Shown in pieces: positions 8,131 to 60,432 of a DNA stretch of 64,000 bases. Source of the DNA: Thermoanaerobaculia bacterium. Lineage in GTDB: Bacteria > Acidobacteriota > Thermoanaerobaculia > Gp7-AA8. The notes beneath the pieces were generated by a model. It had not been told where the DNA came from and made no database searches. It saw only the letters and a list, made by a program, of their open reading frames with translations. Position 1 is the first letter of the stretch. Each line of letters opens with the position of its first letter. The position numbers and the translations under genes were made by a program. Location: contig JBBRTE010000011.1 in assembly GCA_038244715.1 (NCBI GenBank), forward strand, positions 75,386 through 139,385, read 5' to 3'.

Positions 8131-11100
8131 CTACTTTTTCGCGCTCGGTGCGCGCAGCGGGAACGCGGGGCGCACATCCTTCTGCGGTGGGTTCGCGGCG
8201 AGCTGCTTCATCGCGATGTCGAGCGCCTTCTCGAGTTGCGGATCGCGGCCGGCAATGATGTCCGCGGGCGTCTGTTCCACATCGACATCGGGCGGAACAC
8301 CCTCGTTCTCGACGACGAATCCTTCCGGTGTCCAGATGCCGAGGTTCGGAGCGGTGATCGTGCCGCCATCCATGAGAACGGGAAATCCGAGAATGCCCAC
8401 CAGCCCGCCCCAGGTGCGCCGGCCGACGAGGGTTCCGAGCTGCAGCTTGTGAAACATCCACGGCAGCAGGTCGCCGCCCGAGCCGGCGGTCTCGTCGATG
8501 ATCATCACCTTCGGTCCCTGGATCGAGGCCAGCGGGGTCTTCAGGTCGGCCCCGTAGCGCATGGCCCAGTGGCTGATCATCGGACGTCGCAGGATGTCGA
8601 TGTAGTAGTCGGCCACACTTCCGCCCCCGTTGTGGCGCTCGTCGACGATGATCGCCTCGCGGTCCGCCTGCGGGAAAAAGTAGCGCTTGAAGTACGTGTA
8701 GCCTGCTCCTGCCGTGTTGGGCACGTAGACATAGGCCACGCGACCGTTCGACGCTTCGGTGACTTTGCGCAGATTTCCTTCCACCCAGTCGCGATTGCGC
8801 AGCGGCGCCTCGTCCTCGATGGGCACGACCTTGACGACGCGCGACCCGCTGCTGTCCGCGTTCGGTCCCACGGTCAGCTCCACGATCCGCCCTGCCGTCT
8901 GTTCGAAGCGGCTGTAGAGATCTTCGGGATATCTCAGATCGTGGCCATCGACGGCGAGCAGATACTCGCCTGCCTTCACGTCGATGCCCGGCTCCGTCAA
9001 CGGCGACCGCAGCTCCGGGTTCCAGTTCAGTCCACCGAAGACTCTCGCGAACCGGTAGCGGCCGTTCTCGACTTTGTAGTCCGCGCCGAGGAGACCGCCC
9101 GGAACGGCTTCAACATCGGCCAGTGAGTCGCCGCCGCCGAGGCGATGATGGCCGACGGAGAGCTCGGAGGACATCCACATCATCACCCGGTTGAGGTCCT
9201 GCCGCACGGCGAGATCCGGAAGAAGGGCGGAGTACTTGGCGCGCATTGCGTTCCAGTCCGCGCCGTGCATGTTCGGGTCATAGAAGTAGTCGCGATTGAT
9301 GCGCCACGCTTCTTCGAAAATCTGCCGCCATTCGGCGCGGGGATCGATCTTCACCTGCAGCTTGTCGGTGGCGAGCTTGAACTTGGTCAGGTCGAGCTTT
9401 TCGCCGACATCGATCAGCGACCAACCATCCTTGTCGATCAGAATCCGCTTCCCGTCCGCGGAGAGATGAAACGCGTCCACCTTTTCCAGGAGCGTTTCCT
9501 CTTTCTTCTTCTCCAGATCGAAACGCTGCAGGCTGCTCTCATCGGGACCGAAGCGATTCGTACCGGCGGACTTGAGATAGAAAATCTGTCCGCTCTTGCC
9601 CACCTGCAGCGCGTCGTAGCCGGCGGCCTTGGGAGGGAGGGAGACGATGCGCTGGGTGAGTCCGTCGAAGTCGACGACCACCTTGACGACCTTCGTGGCC
9701 GATTTCGCCTTGTCCGCGCTGGCCTTTTCGTCGGCCGGCTTGTCGCTGGCTTTTGTCTCCGCCTTCATCGCTGATTCGTCGGCGCTCTTCGCGGCCTCCT
9801 CGTCGCTCTCCTTCGCGATCGGCGAAACGACGCCTTTCGGAAGCACGGCGAGGTAGATCGATTGTGTCGCCCGTAGATCGGAGTTCGACTGCGCGAACCA
9901 GTCCTCGACCGGTCCGGCGTCCGTCGATGCGAGGAAATAGAGATACTTCCCGTTCGGATCGAAGACCGGCTGGCTGGCGTCGGTGTAGGGATCGGTGACC
10001 GGATACGACTTCTTCTCGCCGATCGAGTAGAGGTAGATCCGATTCATGTACGTCGGCGTGTTGCGGGTGTATGCGAGCCACTGCGAGTCGGGCGCCCAGG
10101 AGTGATTGAGGACGCGCACCGGACCATAGAGAACATCGCTCGAGACCTTCTCGACCACACCGGAGGCGACGTCCGCAACATAGACCGAGCGTGAATTGTC
10201 CGCAAAGCTGATCTTCTTCGAATCGGGGGACCACTTCGGATCGTCGTAAAAGCCAGCGCCGTCGATCCGGATCTCGCGAGGCGTCCCTTTCCCGTCCTGG
10301 TCGCCGATGTTCAGGCGGTACTCGCCGCTGCGGTCGGAGAACCAGGCCATCGACTTTCCATCAGGCGCCCAGGCGGGCGAGCGATCGTTCGCCGCCGGTG
10401 TGCTGGTCAGATTTCGGTCGTCGCCCTTCTCGCGCGGGACGGTGAAGATGTCGCCGCGAAATTCGAAGGCCGCGCGCGCGCCCGAGGGAGACACGGCAAC
10501 ATTGCGGATGTACTTCTTCCCTTTCACGAACCGCGGCAGCGTTTCCACGAGGTCCGCCGCGATTCCGACTTTCAAACGGCTGCTGGTTCCGGTTTTCGGA
10601 TCGAGCAGATGCAGATAGCCACCCTGCTCGTAGATGACTTTCCCGGCGCCGGCAGATGCATTCACGACCGGAAAGTCCGCGTGATTGGTCAGAAGGGTCA
10701 TCTTCTTCGTCGATGGCTCGTAGCTGTAGAGGTTGAACTCACCGTCGCGGTCGGAGCGGAAGTAGATCTTCCCGTCGAGCCACATCGGATCGGTGTCGTT
10801 GCTTCGGCCAGCGGGCTGAGGAACGTGCTCTGTCGCATACGACGCCGTGTCGAAGATGACCAGATTGGAGACCTGACCACCGCGGTAGTGCTTCCACTCG
10901 TTGAATGCGTCGTTCAGCGGGACGTAGACAATCTTCCGGCCGTCGGACGAATAGACGGCCTTGGCCGCATGCGGAATCGGCAGCTTGGTCGCCATCCCTC
11001 CGGTCACCGGCACCGTGAATAGCTGCACGTACCGTCCGGTGTGGACCTCGCGCGGGGACGTGAAGAGGACGTTCGCGCCATCCGGTGTGAACCCGAGGGC

Positions 11101-11436
11101 GATGTCCGCCCGCGGATGCCACGTCAGCCGCTTCGGTACTCCCCCCTCGGCGGCCACGACGTAGACGTCGGTGTTGCCCTCGTACCGGCCGGTGAACGCG
11201 ATCCACTTCCCATCCGGAGAAAAGTGCGGACCCGACTCGATGCCGGGATGCGACGTCAGACGGCGCACTCCTGTCCCATCCAGGTTGGCCACCCAGAGGT
11301 CGTTCGCGTATCCGAACGCGATCCGGTCCGCGCTCACGGCGGGCTCGGAAAGAAGCCGGGTGTCATGAATGTCGACCGCCAGCAACGGCAACGCGGTCAG
11401 CACGAGAACGGTCAGCAACATCACACGAACGCGCAT
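8131..11436 (-). CDS. tricorn protease homologue (S41 family; PD40/WD40 beta-propellers + PDZ + C-terminal peptidase domain)
   Basis: The N-terminus 'DLWVANLDGTGVRRLTSHPGIESGPHFSPDGKWIAFTGRYEGNTDVYVV' is typical of tricorn. The C-terminal S41 domain is '...IIDETAGSGGDLLPWMFHKLQLGTLVGRRTWGG...'. A signal peptide follows the chosen 'MRVRVMLLTV' start. Confidence 0.8.
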   Translation of the reverse strand: MRVRVMLLTVLVLTALPLLAVDIHDTRLLSEPAVSADRIAFGYANDLWVANLDGTGVRRLTSHPGIESGPHFSPDGKWIAFTGRYEGNTDVYVVAAEGGVPKRLTWHPRADIALGFTPDGANVLFTSPREVHTGRYVQLFTVPVTGGMATKLPIPHAAKAVYSSDGRKIVYVPLNDAFNEWKHYRGGQVSNLVIFDTASYATEHVPQPAGRSNDTDPMWLDGKIYFRSDRDGEFNLYSYEPSTKKMTLLTNHADFPVVNASAGAGKVIYEQGGYLHLLDPKTGTSSRLKVGIAADLVETLPRFVKGKKYIRNVAVSPSGARAAFEFRGDIFTVPREKGDDRNLTSTPAANDRSPAWAPDGKSMAWFSDRSGEYRLNIGDQDGKGTPREIRIDGAGFYDDPKWSPDSKKISFADNSRSVYVADVASGVVEKVSSDVLYGPVRVLNHSWAPDSQWLAYTRNTPTYMNRIYLYSIGEKKSYPVTDPYTDASQPVFDPNGKYLYFLASTDAGPVEDWFAQSNSDLRATQSIYLAVLPKGVVSPIAKESDEEAAKSADESAMKAETKASDKPADEKASADKAKSATKVVKVVVDFDGLTQRIVSLPPKAAGYDALQVGKSGQIFYLKSAGTNRFGPDESSLQRFDLEKKKEETLLEKVDAFHLSADGKRILIDKDGWSLIDVGEKLDLTKFKLATDKLQVKIDPRAEWRQIFEEAWRINRDYFYDPNMHGADWNAMRAKYSALLPDLAVRQDLNRVMMWMSSELSVGHHRLGGGDSLADVEAVPGGLLGADYKVENGRYRFARVFGGLNWNPELRSPLTEPGIDVKAGEYLLAVDGHDLRYPEDLYSRFEQTAGRIVELTVGPNADSSGSRVVKVVPIEDEAPLRNRDWVEGNLRKVTEASNGRVAYVYVPNTAGAGYTYFKRYFFPQADREAIIVDERHNGGGSVADYYIDILRRPMISHWAMRYGADLKTPLASIQGPKVMIIDETAGSGGDLLPWMFHKLQLGTLVGRRTWGGLVGILGFPVLMDGGTITAPNLGIWTPEGFVVENEGVPPDVDVEQTPADIIAGRDPQLEKALDIAMKQLAANPPQKDVRPAFPLRAPSAKK

Positions 11437-11513
11437 GAAAGACTCCTGAACCTGGTCGGGATTGAACGGCGCCGCGACTGTAACGCCAAAGCAGGACCGC
11501 GTAAAATGACGAA

Positions 11514-12170
11514 ATGGCAAACGCGCGATTTACGGCCGTGTTGGAGGACGGGCACAAGGGAGTGGCGTTCGAAGTCCCGTTCGATCCGGCGGAACGATGG
11601 GGAACGAAACCCGAGCCTGTGGGTCCGCGGCGTCGCGGCCATCGCGTCTTGGGCAAGGTGAATGGCGTTGCCTTCAAGAGCGCGGTCGTCCCTCGCTCAC
11701 GGAGCTTCTGGGTGCTCATCGATGATGACGTCCGCGCGCAGGCAAAGCTGAAGCCGGGCACCACGGCGAAGATCGAACTTCGACCCGCGGCGCCGACGGT
11801 GACGGGCGATCCGGACATCGCGCTGGCGCGCCTCCGCAGCATCTGCCTGGCACTCCCCGATACCGAGGAGAAGGTCGCATGGGGAGAGCCGACGTTCCGC
11901 GTTCATGGGCGTCTCTTCGCGATGTTTGCGAACAACCATCACCACGACGGCCGCATCGCGGTTTGGTGCAACGCACCGGATGGAGCACAGCAGGATCTCG
12001 TCGCCGCGGATCCGAAGAACCTCTTCATTCCGCCCTACGTCGGTGCCGGCGGCTGGATCGGAATCCGGCTCGACACCCGACTGTCCAGGAACGCGTTGAC
12101 GGCGCTGCTCGAACAGGCCTGGCGCACGACTGCGGAAGCGCGCCGAGTCTCGAAGCGACGACGCCGATAG
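11514..12170 (+). CDS. DUF1905 + MmcQ/YjbR-family domain protein
   Basis: The N-terminal DUF1905-like region is 'FTAVLEDGHKGVAFEVPFD...RVLGKVNGVAFKSAVVP'. The C-terminal MmcQ/YjbR-like region is 'KVAWGEPTFRVHGRLFAMF...'. Confidence 0.55.
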   Translation: MANARFTAVLEDGHKGVAFEVPFDPAERWGTKPEPVGPRRRGHRVLGKVNGVAFKSAVVPRSRSFWVLIDDDVRAQAKLKPGTTAKIELRPAAPTVTGDPDIALARLRSICLALPDTEEKVAWGEPTFRVHGRLFAMFANNHHHDGRIAVWCNAPDGAQQDLVAADPKNLFIPPYVGAGGWIGIRLDTRLSRNALTALLEQAWRTTAEARRVSKRRRR

Positions 12171-12177
12171 CACGTCA

Positions 12178-12420
12178 TCACGAAGCAATGTCCGCAAGAG
12201 CCCGATAAGTCCTGCTCGACGCGCGATGCGTGATCAGCTGCCACGCCTTGATCGTGAACTCGAAGTCCCCGGCTGCCTGCTCCCGCCACTTTCTCAGCGT
12301 GCCGGGCGCGACTCGCGGCGCGTGGTGCTGTTGCCGGCCTGTTGGAAACGGTCGAACACGTGCGGAAGAAACTCGGCTCCAACGCTCGCCCTTGCGTGGA
12401 CGAGACATCGGCGGAAGCAT
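12178..12420 (-). pseudogene. possible remnant of a DUF72-family gene (short ORF retaining a 'W....GDFEFTIKAWQLITH' motif)
   Basis: 'LRKWREQAAGDFEFTIKAWQLITH' resembles the conserved 'W...P.GFrFavKa.ryiTH' block of DUF72 proteins. A full-length DUF72 gene lies at 56567-57271. The fragment lacks the N- and C-terminal parts of the domain. Confidence 0.25.
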
Positions 12421-12496
12421 TCTGCAAGTCGCAGGCCGCTCGCACAGCAGGCACAGGATTCCCCGTTCGTCCTTGGATCAACAGAGGTTGCGGGGA

Positions 12497-12934
12497 CTAC
12501 AACCTGGCCAGCTGCTCCTTCGGATACGCCCGCGGATCGACCTTCGGATGCGCTTCCGCGATCCGGCCGCTCTCGTCGATCAGGTACGCGATGCGTCGGG
12601 CGTATTCATCTCTGGGAGAGTCCGCCGCGCCGTACGCGAGACCGATCGTCCGCCCCGTGTCGCAGAGCAGCGGGAAGGGAAAGTCGAACTTCTCCGCGAA
12701 CCGTTTGTTGGCCTCCGCGTCATCGAAGCTGACGCCGAGGATGGTGGTGTTCTTCGCTTCGTACTGCGCCATGAGGTCCCGGAACCCGGAACCCTCGGCC
12801 GTTCAGCCAGGGGTATCGGCCTTCGGATAGAACCAGAGCACGACCTTGCGTCCGCGCAGGTCGCGGAGCGAGACCTCTCTTCCGCGATGATCGGAAACCG
12901 AGAAGTCCGGGGCTTCGTCGCCAACCTTCAACAT
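12497..12934 (-). CDS. selenocysteine-containing peroxiredoxin (Bcp/PrxQ family). An in-frame UGA at 12803-12805 replaces the peroxidatic Cys.
   Basis: Two ORFs in the supplied track (12803-13084 and 12497-12772) share one frame and are separated only by TGA. The joined product reads 'MLKVGDEAPDF...VVLWFYPKADTPG-U-TAEGSGFRDLMAQYEAKNTTILGVSFD...', which has the canonical Bcp active site 'FYPKA.TPGCT' with Sec at the Cys position. Confidence 0.7.
12773..12796 (-). promoter_or_regulatory. candidate bacterial SECIS hairpin downstream of the Prx UGA
   Basis: The mRNA sequence GAGGGUUCCGG-GUU-CCGGGACCUC forms an 8-9 bp stem (with G-U wobbles) and a GU-containing apical loop. The stem begins about 8 nt 3' of the UGA. 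Confidence 0.45.
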
Positions 12935-13002
12935 GCGCCCTCCTCGCAATGACGCCAGCACGAACCGGATCTTTCCAACCAGCGACACGCCGCCATTGTA
13001 GG

Positions 13003-13953
13003 TCAGTGGCGGGGTTTGGCGTGGCATTCGACAGGAGCGGTGCTGGCGTCGGGTGTCGATCCATCGGTCGCGAGGAAACGCCACTCGTAGCCGTGCTGGT
13101 GAAGTGTCATCAACAGCACCCCATGATGCGTGTGATCGAAGAATGCGCTGTTCCGCTTCAGGGAGCCCATCACGCGCAGCTCGGCGCCTCCGGTGCCAGC
13201 GACGAATTCGCGGAGACCGGCCGGCAACCGCGTGCCGGATGCGTCCTGCGGCTCGTACCGCTCGTAGTTGTGATCGTGTCCGTTGAGGACGACGTCGGCG
13301 CCGTGCACCAGCAGCGCATCCCAGAAGCGTCCGGTGCGCCGTCCCTGATCGCGCGGGTCATCGCCATGCTCGCTACCGGAACTGAACAGCGGATGGTGCC
13401 AGTACGCGAGGATGCATGGTCTCGTAGTTTCCCGCAGATCCTTCTCCAGCCAGGCGAGCTGCGTTGCGTTATCCACATGCTCGCTGTTCAGCGAAACGAT
13501 GTGCCAGTTGCGCAGGTCGAAGCTGTACCAGCCGAGGCCCGGCGGCCCGGCACGCGCTCCGAAGTAGCGGTAGTAGCCTCGGGCGCCGAGTGAGTAGTAC
13601 TCGTGATTGCCCGGCGAGGGATGGGTCCGGTCGAGAAACTGTCCCCATGTCGGCTGGTAGAACGCGGCAAACTGACCGCTGGTGCCTCGCAGATACGCGT
13701 TGTCGCCCAAGGTGTAAACCGTGGCCCGCGGGATCCGGACGATGATGGCCGCGGTCGCCGCCGCGTCGGTGAGATAGGAACCATTGGCGATGTCGCCGGC
13801 GCCCGCGAAGAGCACGTCATCCGCTCCCGGATCGTTCACTTCGAATTGCGGCACGGCGTCCGCCGCGGCCAGGAGCGCCTCCGGCGGCGGCCCGGAGGTC
13901 GTGCAGCGAACCGCTACGACGAGCAGGGCAAGAAGCAGCAGTTGGTTCTTCAT
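13003..13953 (-). CDS. secreted calcineurin-like metallophosphoesterase (purple-acid-phosphatase/PhoD-like)
   Basis: Signal peptide 'MKNQLLLLALLVVAV'. Metallophosphoesterase motifs 'GDIANGSY', 'TLGDNAY', 'GNHEY', 'WHHPLFSSG', 'VVLNGHDHNYER'. Confidence 0.7.
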   Translation of the reverse strand: MKNQLLLLALLVVAVRCTTSGPPPEALLAAADAVPQFEVNDPGADDVLFAGAGDIANGSYLTDAAATAAIIVRIPRATVYTLGDNAYLRGTSGQFAAFYQPTWGQFLDRTHPSPGNHEYYSLGARGYYRYFGARAGPPGLGWYSFDLRNWHIVSLNSEHVDNATQLAWLEKDLRETTRPCILAYWHHPLFSSGSEHGDDPRDQGRRTGRFWDALLVHGADVVLNGHDHNYERYEPQDASGTRLPAGLREFVAGTGGAELRVMGSLKRNSAFFDHTHHGVLLMTLHQHGYEWRFLATDGSTPDASTAPVECHAKPRH

Positions 13954-13975
13954 CGATGAATGAGTCCGTGTGGAG

Positions 13976-16900
13976 TCAGCTCTCCACGAGGACGCGCAGC
14001 TGTCTACTGGCCACGGTGAGCATGGCCAGATCGACCGATTGTGCGGCACGGAAGTCGGTCATCATCTGGTCGATCTTCTCGACTTCGCGCGGACGTGCCG
14101 CCAGCCATTTCTCCACCGGTTCGCGTGACCCGTCACTCTCGTTGATGACGCGCGACGCCAGCGTGCTCTGGTAGTGGAAGAGGTCATCAATCACCGCCGC
14201 GACCGCCGCCTTCTGCCAGGGAGTTTCCGCGGCGATCGACGCACCCGCGGTCCGCAGCCGTTCCAGTCCGAACCGCGCCCCGACACTGAAATAGACCTTG
14301 GCCACATCCTCCACCGGCCCACCCTTCCGCGAGAGCCGGACGATGTCGAGCGCGGCCCCCATGACGCCCAGACTGGCGATGCGGTAGGCCACACGCTCCG
14401 GAACGCCGTCCATCTCGAGCTCGCCCTGACGCGCCTTGAGCGACCCGAGGAGGGCGGCCGGGAGGATGTCGTTCAATTTGTCGGAGATCGCTGTGATCGC
14501 CGGGCGGAATTCGCTGACGTACCGCGCGGTGTCGAGCGTCTGGTAGTCGCTGGTGAGCAGCCAGCTCATGGCGCGCTCCAGCAAGCGGCCCACTTCGATC
14601 AGCATTTCGGTCTGCACACGAGCGGGCAGCACATTGTCCTGCCCCTCGATCTCGGACCAGAGGGCGCGAAGGTCGAACGACTCCCGGATGACCGTGAACG
14701 CCCGCGCGATGTCCGCCGTCGGCTTCCCCGTCTCCTCGGTCATCTGCCAGACGTAGGTCGGACGGATGCGATTGATGATGTTGTTCGTGACGTAGCTGGC
14801 GATGATCTCCCGGCGCAGCCGGTGCCGTTCGATCGTGGCGCGATAGGTCTCGCGCAACGGTTTCGGGAAATAGAGCACGAGGTCTTCGACGAGGAGAGGA
14901 TCGTCGGGCAGATCGCTGGCCAGGAGATCGGCGTAGAGGACGATCTTGCTGTAGGCGAGGAGCACGGCCAGCTCCGGACGGGTCAGCCCGACGTGCGCCG
15001 TGTGCCGCTGCGCGATCGTCTCGTCGTCGGGCAGACCTTCCAGTGCGCGATCGAGCCTGCCGGCGCGCTCGAGTGCGCGCATGAAGCGGGCCTGTTCGTC
15101 CAGGACCGACTCGCCGAGCGCCAGCGTGAGAGAGATGGCCTGGGTCTGCTCGTAGTTGTCGCAGAGCACGAGATGGCCGACTTCGGCCGTCATCGACGCG
15201 AGCAGCGTGTTCCGCTGCTCCAGGCCGGCCAGTTCACCGCGTTCGATGGCGTCGTAAAGCAGGACCTTGATGTTGACCTCGTGGTCCGAGGTGTCGACAC
15301 CGGCGGAGTTGTCGATCGCATCGGTGTTGATGTGGCCACCGCCGAGGGCGTACTCGATCCGGCTGCTCTGGGTGAAACCGAGGTTGGCGCCCTCGCCGAC
15401 GACGCGCACGCGCAGCTCCCGTCCGTCGACGCGCAGCGCGTCGTTGGCACGGTCGCGCGCCGCAGCGTGGTCTTCATCGCTGGATTTCACGTACGTGCCG
15501 ATGCCACCCAGCCAGAGCAGGTCCGCACGTGCGCGCAGGATTGCCTTCATCAGGTCTGCCGGTGGGAGCGTCTTCCTGTCGAGATCGAGGATGCGCATCA
15601 CCTCGTTCGAAACAGTGACCGTCTTCGCGCTGCGCTCCAGAACGGCGCCTCCGGGAGAGAGCAGGTCCGTGTTGTAGCCGTTCCAGTTGAGACGCTGATC
15701 GAACATCCGCTGACGCTCGGCCAGACTGACCGCCGGATCAGGATTGGGGTCGAGAAAGATGTGCGAGTGATTGAACGCCGCGATCAGCTTCGTCTGTGGC
15801 GAGAGAAGCATCGCGTTGCCGAAGACATCGCCGGACATGTCGCCGACGCCGACGACCGTGAACGGCTCGCGCTGGATATTCACCCCCAGCTCGCGGAAGT
15901 GGCGCCTGACCGCCTCCCACCCGCCCCGCGCGGTGATGCCCATCGCTTTGTGGTCGTAGCCCGCGCTGCCGCCGGAAGCGAATGCATCGCCGAGCCAGAA
16001 CCCGTATTCGGCAGAGATGGCGTTGGCGATGTCGGAGAACGTCGCGGTGCCTTTGTCCGCGGCCACCACGAGGTATGGATCGTCGGCGTCGCGCCGCACG
16101 ACGTCGCGCGGCGGGATGACGTCAGCGCCGCGCAGGTTGTCGGTGATGTCCAGCATGCCGCGGAGAAGCGTCTGGTATGCCGCCACTCCCTCTTTCTGAA
16201 ACACGGCGCGTTCCGGGGATGGATTCCTGACGACGAATCCGCCCTTCGACCCCATCGGCACGATCACGACGTTCTTGACGTTCTGCGCCTTCATCAGCCC
16301 GAGGATCTCGGTGCGGAAGTCTTCGCGGCGGTCGGACCAGCGGATGCCGCCGCGCGCGACCTTGCCGGCACGGAGGTGGATGCCCTCCATGACCGGTGAA
16401 TACACGGAGATCTCGAACATCGGCCGCGGCAGAGGCAGCTCGCGGATCGATTGCGACTCGAGTTTGAAGGAGAGATACGGTTTGCGATTTCCGGCGTCAT
16501 CGCGCTTGTAGTAGTTCGTGCGCAGCGTCGCTTCGATCAGCGTGAGGAAGATGCGGAGGATGCGATCCTCGTCCGGGTTCTTCACCTGTTCGAGAGCGTC
16601 TTCGACCTGAGCGCGGATCCCGCTGGCCGCCAGGTGCCGGCCGGTCACACCGGTCGAGGCCATGCTGGCTCCGCGCATCGTAGCCGAGCCCAGCGCCGGA
16701 TCGAAGTGCGTCTCGAAGAGCTGGATCAGCATCCGCGCGACCTCCGGATGCGCCGAGAGCGTCTGCTGCACAAGCGCCTCGCTGACATTGACGCCGATCT
16801 GCCGGATGTACTTGCTATACGCACGCAGCACGACCACCTGGTACCACTCGAGCTCGGCCGTGAGTACCAGCCGATTGAAGCCGTCGTTCTCCGCTTCGCG

Positions 16901-18829
16901 ATTCCAGACGCGGACGAAGGCCTCCTGAAACTTTTGTTTGATGGGCGTGAGGTCGTCCTGCATCCCCTCCGCGTTCAGGCTGAAGTCACGGATGCGCACC
17001 GTCGACGCCGCGCCGAACGGATGGACTTCGTACGGCTCCTCGGCAAGCACCTTCAGCCCCATGTTCTCGAGCCGCGGCATGATCTCGGAAAGCGGCACGG
17101 GGGGACCGGAGTGGATGATCTTGCAGTGGAACTGCCGCTCATCGCCCCGGTGGCGGTAGAGGTCGACCACGAGTTTGCCCGTAGCCAGGACCTCTTCGAT
17201 ATGGTCGATGTCGTACATCGCCGCGTCGGCCAGGAATCGCTCCATGTACGCGGCCGAGAAGGCCTTCTTGTAGCGGCGCTGCAGTTCGATCCCCTGTTCC
17301 TCGCCGAAGCGATGACAGAGCGTGTCGAGGAGACGGTCGCCCCAGGTGCGCGCCGCGTCCGACAGAATCGCCTCGATGCGCTTCTCGTCGACTTCGGGGA
17401 TCTGACCGGCGGTCGTGCGGACAACGAAGAGAATGCGCGCCAGCGGCGCGTCGGTCACGTGCTCGTAGACCGCCGTGTCGCGGCCGGCGAACTGCTCCTC
17501 CAGGATCTGCCTCGCCTTCTCTCGGAACTCGGCAGTGTTCTGATCGCGCGGCACGAACACGTAGCACGAGATGAATCGATCGAAGACGTCCTTGCGGGTG
17601 AAGAGTGCCACGCGGTGGCGCTCCTGGAGCAGCAGGATCCCGCGGGCGATGTCGTAGAGCTGCCCATCAGTGATCTGGAAAAACTCGTCGCGGGGAAACG
17701 TCTCCAGGATGTCGACGAGGGCCTTGCCGTTGTGGCTCCGCGGATCGAGGCCGGCACGCTCGATCGTGCGCTTCGCCTTGAGCCGCAGCATCGGGATCTC
17801 CCGCACGCTGCGGCTGTAGGCTGCCGAGGTGAAGAGACCGAGGAAGCGGTCTTCTCCGATGAGATTCCCTTCGTCGTCGTAACGCTTGATCCCGATCCGG
17901 TCGAGCGGCACCGGACGATGAATCGTGCTGCGGCTGTTCGCCTTCGTGATGATCAGCAGATCCTTCGTTCTGGCGTAGTCGCTGAACTCTGCGGTCAGCG
18001 GCGCGGAGCCGCGGGCGGCCGACTCGGCGCGAATCCCGCGAAGGATCCCCAGACCGCTTCCCGAGATGGGAGGCAGGTAGTCCTTCCCCTCACGCGTCTC
18101 GAATCCGTAGCGGCGAAACCCGACCAGGATGAAGTTTCCGTCGTCGAGCCACTGCAGGAATGCCCGCGCTTCGGCCACTTCCTCCTGCGGCATTGGCAGC
18201 GTCGCACGTTCGAGCTCGGCGACTTCCGCCTTGAGTGTGTCGCGCATCACCTGCCAGTCCTTGACCGCGGCCCGTACGTCGGAGAGCACTCGCTCGATGG
18301 CCGCGGAGATCGTCTGCAGCTCGGCGGCGTCGGTTTCCTGGTCCATCTCCAGGTGCATGTACGACTCGACAATCGCGTCCATGGGCGCTTCGTGCGTCGA
18401 TGTCAGCTCCACCCTCCGGCCTCCGGCATTGCGGCGGACGCGGACCACCGGATGCAGCAGGAGGTGGATGTTCCTGGCCAGACGGTTTACCTCGGCGCTG
18501 ACGGAGTCGACGAGGAAGGGCATATCGTCATTCACGATCTCGATGACGGTGTGCTCGATCCCCCATCCATTCGCTTCCACGGAGGGGTTGAACAGCCGGA
18601 TCTTCGGGGCACCGACGTGACGCATCTCGCCGAACTGCCAGAGCGAGAGTGCGGCGCCGAGAAGAGTGTCGAACGAGCTGTAGATGATGTCGTCGGGAGC
18701 GACCAGGGCGAAGAAGCGCCGCACGAAGGCCTCGGCGCTGTCCGCCTGCTCGCTGCTGACACGTTTGTGTGCTTCGGTGGCAAGGCGCTCGACGAGATCT
18801 GCCTTGCGCTGCTCAGGGGTCATGGTCAT
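13976..18829 (-). CDS. gdhB: NAD-specific glutamate dehydrogenase, large (about 1600 aa) GdhB/Bac_GDH type
   Basis: The 1617-aa product has the catalytic core '[41 protein letters not shown]' and the characteristic long N- and C-terminal regions. The start was taken at '[16 protein letters not shown]'. The 120 codons further upstream in the ORF are not protein-like. Confidence 0.85.
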   Translation of the reverse strand: [1617 protein letters not shown]

Positions 18830-18892
18830 GAATCGCGGCTCCTGCAACTGCGGGCGCCGATCATATCGCGGCACTAAACGTCCCGGCACCCC

Positions 18893-19312
18893 GTGAATGC
18901 CTTGAAACGATGGAAAGAAGGCACTGGCGTCGATGGTACTGTTCGTGCCATCACAGAGCGAGAGCGAGAGAACGAATTCATGGCGCCAGACAACAACGAC
19001 AGAGTCCCGACGTCCTCGATCGTCATGAAAGCGATGGACGCAAAGACGTTCATGGAGTTGGAGGTGTTCGTCAAAGACCTGGAGAGCAGGCCGACGGATC
19101 GGCTGCTGCGCGACCTGGGAGTCCTGGTGGGACTTTCCGAGGCGAAGGCGCAGATCATTTCCTACGTGGTGGCCACGAAGTTCCGGCATGCGGGCGCCGA
19201 GGAGCGCAGCGTCATCCTGGACAGCGTGGCCGCGACCTCGGAGAGCCTTCCCGAGGGCGACGACCGCAGCCGAGTCCTGGACGTGCTGAAACGGCTCCGC
19301 GGCGTGCTTTAG
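18893..19312 (+). CDS. hypothetical small protein (the start may be the internal ATG at about 18980)
   Basis: ORF with no recognisable motifs. It is divergent from gdhB. Confidence 0.3.
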   Translation: MNALKRWKEGTGVDGTVRAITERERENEFMAPDNNDRVPTSSIVMKAMDAKTFMELEVFVKDLESRPTDRLLRDLGVLVGLSEAKAQIISYVVATKFRHAGAEERSVILDSVAATSESLPEGDDRSRVLDVLKRLRGVL

Positions 19313-26955: not shown

Positions 26956-29061
26956 CTACGCGGGCAGTTCAATTTCAAAGCGTGTTCCTCTCGGATGGTT
27001 GTCGTGAACGGAAATCCGGCCGTCATGGTCGTTCACGATGCGATGGACGATGGCCAGGCCGAGACCGGTGCCTCGCCCCTTGGTGGAAAAGTACGGGAGG
27101 AAAAGCTTCTCCTTGTCCGCATCCGGAACGCCGCGGCCTGGATCGACCACCTCGATGACGACGCGATGGGGTGCGCGCCGCGCGGACACGCGGACCTCGC
27201 CGGTTTCGGTCGCCTCGACGGCGTTCTTGAGCAGGTTGCCGACCGCTCGCCGGATTTGCTCCGGATCGACGAGCAGTTCGATGTCATTCTCAACCGAGAC
27301 ACTGACGGAGACGCCCGGCTTTCCATTGCGATACAGCTCCGCGGCCTCCTGCAGGATGTCCGCGAGCTGCGCGTGCCGCAGGTGCACGGCCGGCATGCGG
27401 GCGAACCGCGCGAACTCGTCGACCATCCGCTTGAGTTGTCCCACCTCGGTCACGATGGTCTTCGTCCCTTCTTCGATCGCGCGGGCCGTGTCGGGATCGT
27501 TGTTCTGAAACTTCCGGGCGATGCGCTCCGCCGAGAGCTGGATGGGCGTCAGCGGATTCTTGATCTCGTGCGCGATCCGGCGCGCTGCTTCGTTCCAGGC
27601 AGCCAGCTTCTGCGCCTGGACGAGCGATGTGGAGTCTTCGATGGCGACGACCCAGCCTTCATCGCCGCCGCCACCGGAAAGCCGCGCGACGGAGACTTCG
27701 AGATAGCGCAGTTCGCCGCCGCGGATCAACGTGACTTCGCGCGCCCGTCCCCCACGCGCGGTCAGTTCCCGGAGTGTGTCGGAAAGGGGCAGCAGGTCTC
27801 CGGTCAGCACCGAACAGAGGTTCGCGCGAGCCGGAGGCTCCTCGATCTGCAGCATCTGCATCGCGGCGTGGTTGACGCTGAGAAGCTCGAACGACTCCGT
27901 GAACGCCAGGATGCCGGCGGAGACGCTGTCGAGCACCGTCGACAGATACCGGTTCGCCTGTGTCAGCGCCTGCCGCTGCTCATCGAGCTGCGTCGACATG
28001 TCGTTGAACGACTCGATGAGGCGCCCCACCTCATCCGTCGCCGCCACCGCCACCCGGTACCCATAGCCACCCTCCGCAAGCTTCCCCGTCGCCTCAGCAA
28101 GTGCCTTGATCGGGATCGTGATGCGGCGCGAGGCGTAGATGGACGTCCAGAGGGTCCCGAAGAGGATCGCCAGTGTGACCGCCAGAAACAGCGACGTCTG
28201 CGAGGCTTTCAGCGTGGGCCGCTGCGCGTTGAGCTGCTCGAAATTCTTGTGCTGCACGATCGAGTCGTCGATGAGGTGACTCATCGTCGCCGGAATGAAG
28301 ACGCCGGCGATCGCGACGTTCGGCGTCGCCCCGATGCGGATCGCCGCGCGGATCCACTTCCCGCTCGCGCCGACGTCGATCTTCGTCGCCCGTGCGGACG
28401 CCCCAAGGTCATCGAAGAATTTCTTCGGCGGTTCGGACACCTCGTGGATCGGCGCGCGCGGATTGGCAACGACGCGCACGAGCGTGCCACCCCGATAGAG
28501 GCCGACCATGTCCACGTTGTGAAACTGCTGCACATGGTTGAGGACCGCGTCGAGTTGCGCCGGATCCTCGGCGACGTGACTGGAGGCCACCTCGCGCGCC
28601 GCTCCGGCCGCCATCATCGCCGACTGATCCTCGGCCATCCGTGCGATCGACTCCCCATTTGTGAGGATGCGGCTCACCGGGGCGTTGAACCAGCGGTCGA
28701 TCGAAGTCCGCAGAAGATCCGTCGCGAAGAAAAAGAGAATGAGGACAGGGATGAGCGATGTGGCCACCCAGGCCACAGCGAGCTTCGTCCGGAACCGCGA
28801 TCCGATGATGCCTCGCTGCCGCTCCAGGACCAGCTTCACCACTCCACGGAGGAGCACGAAGAGGATCCCGAAGATCAGGAGTACGTTGATGTTCGCGAGA
28901 ACGAACAGCAGCACCTGGCTGCTCAGGGCTTCGGGTGAGAGCTCCCTGGCCCTCTGGACGGCGTAATAAATCAGGCTCGTCGCAGCAAGGATCAGCAGCG
29001 GTACCGTCACGATGACCCGAGGGTCCTTGCGGTAACGCAGCAGGAGCGCGCGGAGGGTCAT
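26956..29061 (-). CDS. ntrY: sensor histidine kinase, NtrY-like (TM-HAMP-PAS-HisKA-HATPase)
   Basis: The H-box 'HEIKNPLTPIQLSAERI' is typical of NtrY-like kinases. N/G-box motifs and N-terminal TM helices are present. The stop overlaps the ntrX region in the classic ntrYX order. Confidence 0.75.
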   Translation of the reverse strand: MTLRALLLRYRKDPRVIVTVPLLILAATSLIYYAVQRARELSPEALSSQVLLFVLANINVLLIFGILFVLLRGVVKLVLERQRGIIGSRFRTKLAVAWVATSLIPVLILFFFATDLLRTSIDRWFNAPVSRILTNGESIARMAEDQSAMMAAGAAREVASSHVAEDPAQLDAVLNHVQQFHNVDMVGLYRGGTLVRVVANPRAPIHEVSEPPKKFFDDLGASARATKIDVGASGKWIRAAIRIGATPNVAIAGVFIPATMSHLIDDSIVQHKNFEQLNAQRPTLKASQTSLFLAVTLAILFGTLWTSIYASRRITIPIKALAEATGKLAEGGYGYRVAVAATDEVGRLIESFNDMSTQLDEQRQALTQANRYLSTVLDSVSAGILAFTESFELLSVNHAAMQMLQIEEPPARANLCSVLTGDLLPLSDTLRELTARGGRAREVTLIRGGELRYLEVSVARLSGGGGDEGWVVAIEDSTSLVQAQKLAAWNEAARRIAHEIKNPLTPIQLSAERIARKFQNNDPDTARAIEEGTKTIVTEVGQLKRMVDEFARFARMPAVHLRHAQLADILQEAAELYRNGKPGVSVSVSVENDIELLVDPEQIRRAVGNLLKNAVEATETGEVRVSARRAPHRVVIEVVDPGRGVPDADKEKLFLPYFSTKGRGTGLGLAIVHRIVNDHDGRISVHDNHPRGTRFEIELPA

Positions 29062-59874: not shown

Positions 59875-60432
59875 ATGGCGCGCGTTGCTGATGCGGAAGT
59901 GAGCCAACTCGATCGATCCATCCAGGCAGTCCTCGACGCGCAGGCGAAGCAGTGGGGAGCACCGCTGCTGAATCATCTCGTCTACGCGCGCCGCCCCTCG
60001 ATCTTCAAGGGCGTGCGGATGATGTGGAGTGGTCTGGGCACGTCGGGGCTGATCGACGGACGGCTGGCCGCCCTGGTCAACCGGCGCGTCGCCTTTCTGA
60101 ACGGTTGCGAGTTCTGACAGGACATCAACGCTGCGGTCGGCAGCGCACTGGGAATCGCGGATGAAAAGCTGTTGTCCCTGGCGGACTGGCGGTCGTCGCC
60201 CCTGTTCGACGACCTCGAGCAGCTCGTGCTGGAGTTCGCAGACGCGATGACGATCACCGGAAGCGACGTTTCGGACGCGCTGTTTGCGCGGATTCGGGAA
60301 CGCTTCGATGACGATACGATCGTCGAGCTGACAGAGATCGTGGCGTGGGAAAACGCCTCGTCGAAATTCAATCGGGCTCTCAGGATTCCGTCGCAGAACC
60401 TGTGGCGGCGGGAAGCTACGGCGAAGGATTAG
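59875..60432 (+). CDS. AhpD-like / carboxymuconolactone decarboxylase-family selenoprotein with a CxxU redox motif. The in-frame UGA is at 60115-60117.
   Basis: ORFs 59827-60117 and 60172-60432 share a frame and are joined by TGA. The product is '...RVAFLNGCEF-U-QDINAAVGSALGI...'. This matches the AhpD 'NGCxxCxxxH' core with Sec at the second Cys. The start was chosen at 'MARVAD', which has the RBS GAGGAAAAA. The longer ORF would overlap the fpg start. Confidence 0.65.
60130..60144 (+). promoter_or_regulatory. candidate bacterial SECIS hairpin (GCUGC-GGUCG-GCAGC) 12 nt 3' of the UGA
   Basis: 5-bp GC-rich stem with a GGUCG apical loop. It could extend with flanking pairs. Confidence 0.45.

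Follow-up and report, generated by a model that had tools for sequence, protein, structure and literature searches.

The peroxiredoxin gene and its surroundings

The 64-kb stretch of DNA analysed here (the window) contains, on its reverse strand, a gene for a peroxiredoxin of the Bcp/PrxQ type, whose frame runs from an ATG (12934-12932) to a TAG stop (12499-12497) and is interrupted only by an in-frame TGA (12805-12803), with neither frameshifts nor further stops (Table 1). When the TGA is read as selenocysteine (Sec, U), the product has 145 aa including U44 (145 sense positions) and the sequence MLKVGDEAPDF...VVLWFYPKADTPG-U-TAEGSGFRDLMAQYEAK...EQLARL. The ATG at 12934 was taken as the start because a Shine-Dalgarno-like element precedes it and because the N-terminus MLKVGDEAPDF is common to the homologs of 145 aa. 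In the list of open reading frames, the gene appears as two pieces in the same frame (12803..13084 and 12497..12772), which the first-pass annotation had described as parted only by the TGA and as reading, once joined, through a Bcp active site with Sec in the position of the Cys; the frame and the translation are as it had claimed. It had also anticipated that conventional annotation would yield two fragments, and gene callers do split the peroxiredoxin, with a 91-aa C-terminal fragment as one database record (P0052) and two separate calls in a Logan assembly (L001, run SRR19962014). This independent assembly is 100% identical to the window over positions 10497-14772, TGA included, although it may share the same reads.

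Next to the gene lie, upstream and in the same orientation, a metallophosphoesterase gene and, in convergent orientation, a DUF1905/YjbR gene; these neighbors suggest no dedicated partner. Just upstream of the metallophosphoesterase gene, an open reading frame of 1737 aa (13976-19189, reverse strand) appears unrelated to the peroxiredoxin.

Table 1. Features of the window, with positions counted from its first nucleotide.
Feature	Position	Strand	Basis and remarks
Complete Bcp/PrxQ peroxiredoxin gene, predicted to contain Sec	12497..12934	-	Sequence and translation; PF00578; best matches Bcp/PrxQ
Predicted Sec codon UGA (U44)	12803..12805	-	Peroxidatic Cys column of P-x-x-x-T-x-x-C
Shine-Dalgarno-like GAGGAGGG	12938..12945	-	Few nt 5' of the ATG; direct reading of the sequence
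bSECIS-like hairpin inside the coding sequence	12774..12794	-	Stem GGGUUCCGG / CCGGGACCU, columns 12-20 with 24-32
Predicted YciW-related / AhpD-like (CMD family) selenoprotein gene, motif C-E-F-U	59875..60432	+	TGA scan; PF02627; NF053654

Family membership and active site

With a Cys put for the stop, the read-through product matches the Pfam families AhpC-TSA (PF00578, E 1.7e-34, residues 4-127 on positions 1-123 of the 124 of the model) and Redoxin. Among the NCBIfam models, the equivalogs for Bcp and PrxQ match best, with scores below the cut-off (100 vs 140 bits), and no NCBIfam model was above its cut-off for the read-through product, which suggests that there is no dedicated annotation model for Bcp-type Sec peroxiredoxins. 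The best matches in the PDB are Bcp proteins, aligned over the full length with E-values of 1e-22 to 1e-23. In these alignments, the Cys of 'TPGCT' in 5enu stands opposite the UGA, and the conserved active-site Arg, in the 'ARITFVID' of 3drn, opposite R114; the active-site motif P37-K-A-D-T41-P-G-U44 is the PxxxTxxC signature with Sec in the place of the peroxidatic Cys. The alignment check proposed in the first-pass annotation, that of the Cys and Sec columns, is therefore positive, with the UGA in the peroxidatic Cys column of Bcp/PrxQ both in 5enu and in the homologs.

Compared with the Cys-type Bcp/PrxQ proteins (E. coli Bcp, NF006960; Sulfolobus Bcp1, 3drn; and 5enu), the window protein has the same fold, length, motif and Arg, but it would carry Sec for the peroxidatic Cys and has no CxxxxC pair. 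Residue 49, at the +5 position that holds the resolving Cys of the atypical 2-Cys subgroup and is optional for the family, is a Ser. At first, the +5 Cys seemed to be absent from all Sec forms, but in a larger set this resolving Cys is present in 111 of the 240 Sec forms among the matches listed. The only Cys of the window protein is C91, in the motif 'LLCD'. The Cys of this motif is equally frequent in relatives with and without the +5 Cys, and a role of C91 as a substitute for the missing resolving Cys is not supported, as no complementary pattern with the +5 Cys was found.

PrxU, said to have been described by Sohling et al. in 2001 as a Sec-containing peroxiredoxin of Eubacterium acidaminophilum, likewise has Sec at the peroxidatic position, but it belongs to a different peroxiredoxin subfamily and is longer (model length of 233 in NF040737) than the window protein. 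The latter scores 43 bits against the NF040737 cut-off of 270 and hence is not a PrxU ortholog.

The hairpin downstream of the UGA

A hairpin starts 8 nt after the UGA and lies wholly within the coding sequence. Numbering the columns from the U of the UGA as 1, G12-G20 pair with C24-U32 around an apical loop GUU (12785-12783), and a possible lower stem extends the structure to 12768-12799. The first-pass annotation had noted here a bSECIS-like hairpin with a GU-containing apical loop about 8 nt after the UGA, and both the fold and the compensatory changes described below uphold it; the fold of the 71-nt single sequence is no stabler than those of shuffled sequences (z = -0.53), so that it is comparison, and not thermodynamics, that supports the hairpin. 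Folding of the single sequence was accordingly discarded as SECIS evidence, being uninformative in GC-rich coding sequence. An Rfam scan of the window returned only a tRNA-Gly and no match of the SECIS type.

In E. coli, the SECIS of the fdhF type is a hairpin within the open reading frame; it starts about 10 nt past the UGA, and its apical loop has a G followed by a U at a distance of about 20 nt from that codon. The window hairpin is likewise within the frame and near the UGA and has a G-then-U apical loop, but this loop has only 3 nt (GUU), there is no evident 5' bulged U, and at least three registers are found in the Prx family.

Among the Sec forms (218 unique sequences), the GUU triloop is found at the same position in 126 of the 215 that were folded, while in 58 the hairpin is in a second register, whose loop is of the CGUGAUC type, has 7 nt and lies 4 nt further on, and most of the remaining ones keep the GUU loop in a bulged variant. 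Constraint is also seen at synonymous sites. The Gly at +6 is encoded by GGG in 160 of 185 Sec forms; for comparison, the invariant Gly at -1 is encoded by GGC in 100, GGT in 88 and GGG in 27 sequences, and the Gly at +4 by GGG in no more than 6 of 161. The middle base of the +5 codon (column 17) and the synonymous third base of an Arg codon (column 27) vary together as G-C (103), A-U (46) and C-G (20), with a Fisher p of 8e-11 calculated without phylogenetic correction. In an alignment of 71 randomly drawn sequences, the register of the window has 76% of the cells paired, vs 33-52% when slid by 1-3 columns, and 29 double-change cells vs 8.4 ± 2.4 in shuffles.

RNAalifold gives no consensus pairs on the random family-wide set, because several hairpin registers are in use. 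It does predict the hairpin in the FRDL subfamily, which was chosen by protein motif and not by fold, and there the pair 17-27 is GC in 36 sequences, CG in 18 and AU in 1, with double changes in 19 of the 56 sequences. The close Sec orthologs with the TGA share the TCC/CGG variant of the hairpin that is found in the window. As looked for in a selenoprotein gene, a stem-loop is found just 3' of the UGA, with an apical loop beginning with G and with conservation beyond coding needs.

Part of this structure is already present in the Cys-type genes. In six close Cys-type orthologs, 5-7 of the 8 hairpin pairs are already formed, vs 8/8 in the Sec form of the window, and therefore the structure is partly a by-product of coding for EG(C/S)GFRD. 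The fold energies are -7.0 to -17.5 kcal/mol for the six Cys-type sequences vs -20.5 and -22.6 kcal/mol for two Sec forms. Judging from the sequences compared, the Sec forms have perfected a hairpin that exists partially in the Cys orthologs.

Conservation of the TGA and the Cys/Sec switch

At the peroxidatic column, the 120 closest database homologs have Cys (99), 'W' (11) or 'L' (1), and the only fragment among them is the C-terminal reading frame of the window itself. The closest full-length homologs, with 77-79% identity, carry Cys. The gene of the closest Cys ortholog (P0001, 79% identity; locus L249, compared with window positions 11514-12934) has the same convergent DUF1905/YjbR neighbor, and this synteny indicates that the Sec and Cys forms are true orthologs and that the switch between them was fairly recent. 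In one record with 'W' (76% identical, from three separate JGI metagenomes), the DNA has TGA at this place, followed by a hairpin nearly identical to that of the window, and the surrounding codons differ at synonymous sites. The single Leu belongs to a close full-length homolog (P0029, FYPKADTPG-L-TIEGRGFRDL) and might stem from a TGA-to-TTA change or an error, or the copy might be inactive.

Species-representative genomes and metagenomes were searched with a degenerate pattern for YP[KE]ADTPG followed by TGA and AC, with no hairpin content. At least 120 reference genomes carry the same TGA, as do at least 120 metagenome contigs, and in 223 of the 240 matches listed the frame stays open for 100-119 further codons of Bcp sequence. 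The matches listed include Acidobacteriota, Thermoanaerobaculia, Vicinamibacteria, Myxococcota/Deltaproteobacteria, Alpha- and Gammaproteobacteria, Planctomycetota, Gemmatimonadota, Acidimicrobiia, Binatia, Rokubacteria, Dormibacterota and others. Two contigs, one labelled as a Klebsiella pneumoniae MAG (L032, CAMBFS010000005.1) and the other as Patescibacteria (L033, DASRAN010000055.1), have Sec-type copies resembling those of the Binatia/Acidobacteria type (for the former, e.g., L026); they look like mis-binned contigs and not like a genuine occurrence in the labelled taxa.

In comparisons with the five closest Sec orthologs, the sequence downstream of the TGA has a Ka/Ks of 0.13-0.18 and the sequence upstream of it one of 0.10-0.14. 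Translation and selection therefore both extend past the UGA, which excludes a decaying pseudogene.

A second selenoprotein gene and the decoding context

A scan of the window for in-frame TGA codons amid strong coding signal returned a second candidate, 47 kb from the peroxiredoxin gene. Its TGA (60115-60117, forward strand) lies in the context NGCEF-U-QDINAAVG and is followed by a hairpin, CGCUGC-GGUCG-GCAGCG, at 60129-60145. With Cys substituted, the read-through product matches the Pfam family CMD and, over positions 1-179 of 179, the NCBIfam model 'YciW-related (seleno)protein' (E 1.1e-92, 308.7 bits vs a cut-off of 310). Its full-length relatives have 'W' at the TGA column in 23 of 24 cases and Cys in one, and dozens of short records for relatives start just past this column. 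For one relative followed to the DNA level, the codon is TGA and the same hairpin is present, with a loop that also begins at column 21. Three other in-frame TGA candidates, at 28277 (forward), 23717 (reverse) and 41425 (reverse), have no Pfam match and were dismissed as off-frame artefacts.

Some public pipelines (JGI and ENA records) give 'W' at the TGA of selenoprotein genes, as if TGA encoded Trp. A 'W' at an invariant Cys column can serve as a quick flag for selenoproteins in such databases.

Among the ordinary stops of the window, TGA is the most frequent, closing 24 of the 43 confident open reading frames, and consequently there is no global reassignment of the code. ARAGORN found no tRNA-Sec in the 64-kb window or in 1.5 Mb of retrieved loci, and selA, selB and selD were not found by eye among the right-sized reading frames of the window, which encode an amidase, methylmalonyl-CoA mutase, LpxC, an M20 peptidase, MltG and a TPR protein. 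Since two independent selenoprotein genes with intact hairpins occur within 64 kb, a Sec-decoding genome is by far the likeliest context, and the sel genes would be located elsewhere in the source genome.

Alternative explanations for the in-frame TGA

Because a change from TGC to TGA takes a single base, and because the closest full-length homologs carry Cys, one of them in a syntenic position, the gene might be regarded as a Cys-type Bcp pseudogene with a recent TGC/TGT-to-TGA nonsense mutation and a decaying downstream half. Against this, hundreds of diverged orthologs have the same TGA and an open frame, Ka/Ks is alike on the two sides of the TGA, no frameshift or further stop has accumulated, and the hairpin has all 8 pairs and codon choices specific to the Sec forms. 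The conserved TGA and the Ka/Ks effectively refute this explanation, which is extremely improbable. A sequencing or assembly error has to be considered for any metagenome-assembled contig, as single-base errors occur; yet the Logan assembly, even if maybe built from the same reads, is identical, and the TGA is family-wide in close Sec orthologs having the same TCC/CGG variant of the hairpin, so that the probability of an error is negligible.

A reading of the UGA other than as Sec, either by a reassigned code (TGA as Trp or Gly) or by near-cognate read-through, would agree with the 'W' that some pipelines give relatives at this column. It is exceedingly unlikely, given that TGA ends over half of the confident reading frames of the window, that a strongly conserved enzyme would lose its catalysis with Trp or Gly at the peroxidatic position, that the pattern matches span many phyla with the standard code, and that a conserved hairpin at SECIS distance would be needless under a reassigned code. 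The gene could, lastly, be a relic, truly of the Sec type but stranded in a genome that has lost the Sec machinery, its product truncated and non-functional. Bacteria have commonly lost the Sec trait in the course of evolution (PMC1794560) and no gene of the machinery was seen in the 64-kb window, but the presence of two intact selenoprotein genes with intact hairpins, together with the purifying selection on the Bcp gene relative to its nearest Sec orthologs, makes this very unlikely.

Proposed function and recycling

Here it is proposed, with high confidence, that a single, intact gene at this locus encodes a Bcp/PrxQ-type peroxiredoxin of 145 residues, in which the peroxidatic Cys is replaced by selenocysteine (U44) through a UGA recoded by means of the hairpin. 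We infer the insertion of Sec at U44 from the sequence features described above. The hairpin 8 nt after the UGA would act as a bacterial SECIS; by analogy with the established bacterial mechanism, it would recruit the SelB·GTP·Sec-tRNA(Sec) complex, and the UGA (12805-12803) would then be read as Sec. The enzyme would reduce peroxides via a selenenic acid at U44. Because the +5 resolving position is occupied by Ser49, U44 would probably be recycled either by direct reduction by a thioredoxin/glutaredoxin-type partner (a '1-Sec' mechanism) or through C91. As C91 shows no sign of having taken the resolving role, the 1-Sec mechanism, with direct reduction of the thioredoxin/glutaredoxin type, is the favored possibility.

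A broader reading joins these observations, and we put it forward tentatively, as possible but not probable. The +5 codon (TGC for Cys, TCC for Ser or CGC for Arg) is at the same time part of the SECIS stem, which would couple the RNA structure to the chemistry of the active site; the 'proto-SECIS' of the Cys-type genes may explain the repeated switching between Cys and Sec and the presence of at least three registers, perhaps independently arisen; and the combination of U44 with S49 may define a '1-Sec' Bcp with a different recycling. The +5 codon located in the stem and varying together with the synonymous Arg codon, the proto-hairpin and the several registers are modestly novel points, and they suggest a reason for the ready switching between Cys and Sec.

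Relation to known selenoprotein families

A gene of this kind is less novel than the first-pass annotation would suggest, as the Prx (TxxU) family of the Kryukov/Zhang/Gladyshev catalogues has long been known (PMC1088965, PMC1794560, PMC2398784, PMC13188914). The genome survey of 2006 lists a 'Prx' selenoprotein family (T/SxxU) with 12 genes and five inferred Cys-to-Sec events, and includes the Acidobacteria among the users of Sec (PMC1794560). In the Sargasso Sea survey, Prx (COG1225) ranks second in abundance among the selenoprotein families, with 43 sequences (PMC1088965), and the GOS survey reports 253 Prx sequences (PF00578, TxxU) as well as an AhpD-like 2 family (PF02627, CxxU) (PMC2398784). 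A review of 2026 places Prx (PF00578, TxxU, PxxxTxxU) among the experimentally supported selenoproteins, and the only Sec-peroxiredoxin with an experimental reference in it is PrxU of Eubacterium acidaminophilum (PMC13188914). The second gene of the window (59875-60432) fits the AhpD-like 2 family of the GOS survey.

The peroxiredoxin gene has every sequence feature of the Prx (TxxU) family, that is, the PF00578/COG1225 domain (COG1225 being the Bcp COG) and Sec in T-x-x-U, and by its sequence it is a further member of this long-known and abundant selenoprotein family. It shares with the family PF00578, the peroxidatic Sec, a predicted SECIS within the coding sequence just 3' of the Sec codon, widespread Cys homologs and frequent switching. 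It differs in coming from an Acidobacteriota-like lineage of the soil/sediment type, as judged by its closest relatives (Acidobacteriota/Thermoanaerobaculia MAGs), and not from marine plankton or Deltaproteobacteria, and in having Ser where many members have the +5 Cys; otherwise nothing essential differs. A literature search for selenocysteine together with PrxQ found no bacterial Sec-PrxQ under that name, and it seems that the Bcp-type Sec subtype goes by the generic 'Prx' label only.

As the window gene is one more member of a known family, it leaves the current understanding of selenoproteins unchanged, and its value is mainly one of annotation. Gene callers split the gene into fragments of 74-93 aa and 91 aa, or the TGA is read as Trp, and therefore both an antioxidant enzyme and the Sec-decoding trait of the Acidobacteriota-like lineage go unrecorded. 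Bcp-type Sec peroxiredoxins occur in at least 120 species-level genomes from many phyla, and this widespread form, of a subfamily different from that of PrxU, is a reasonable target for comparing catalysis by Sec and by Cys.
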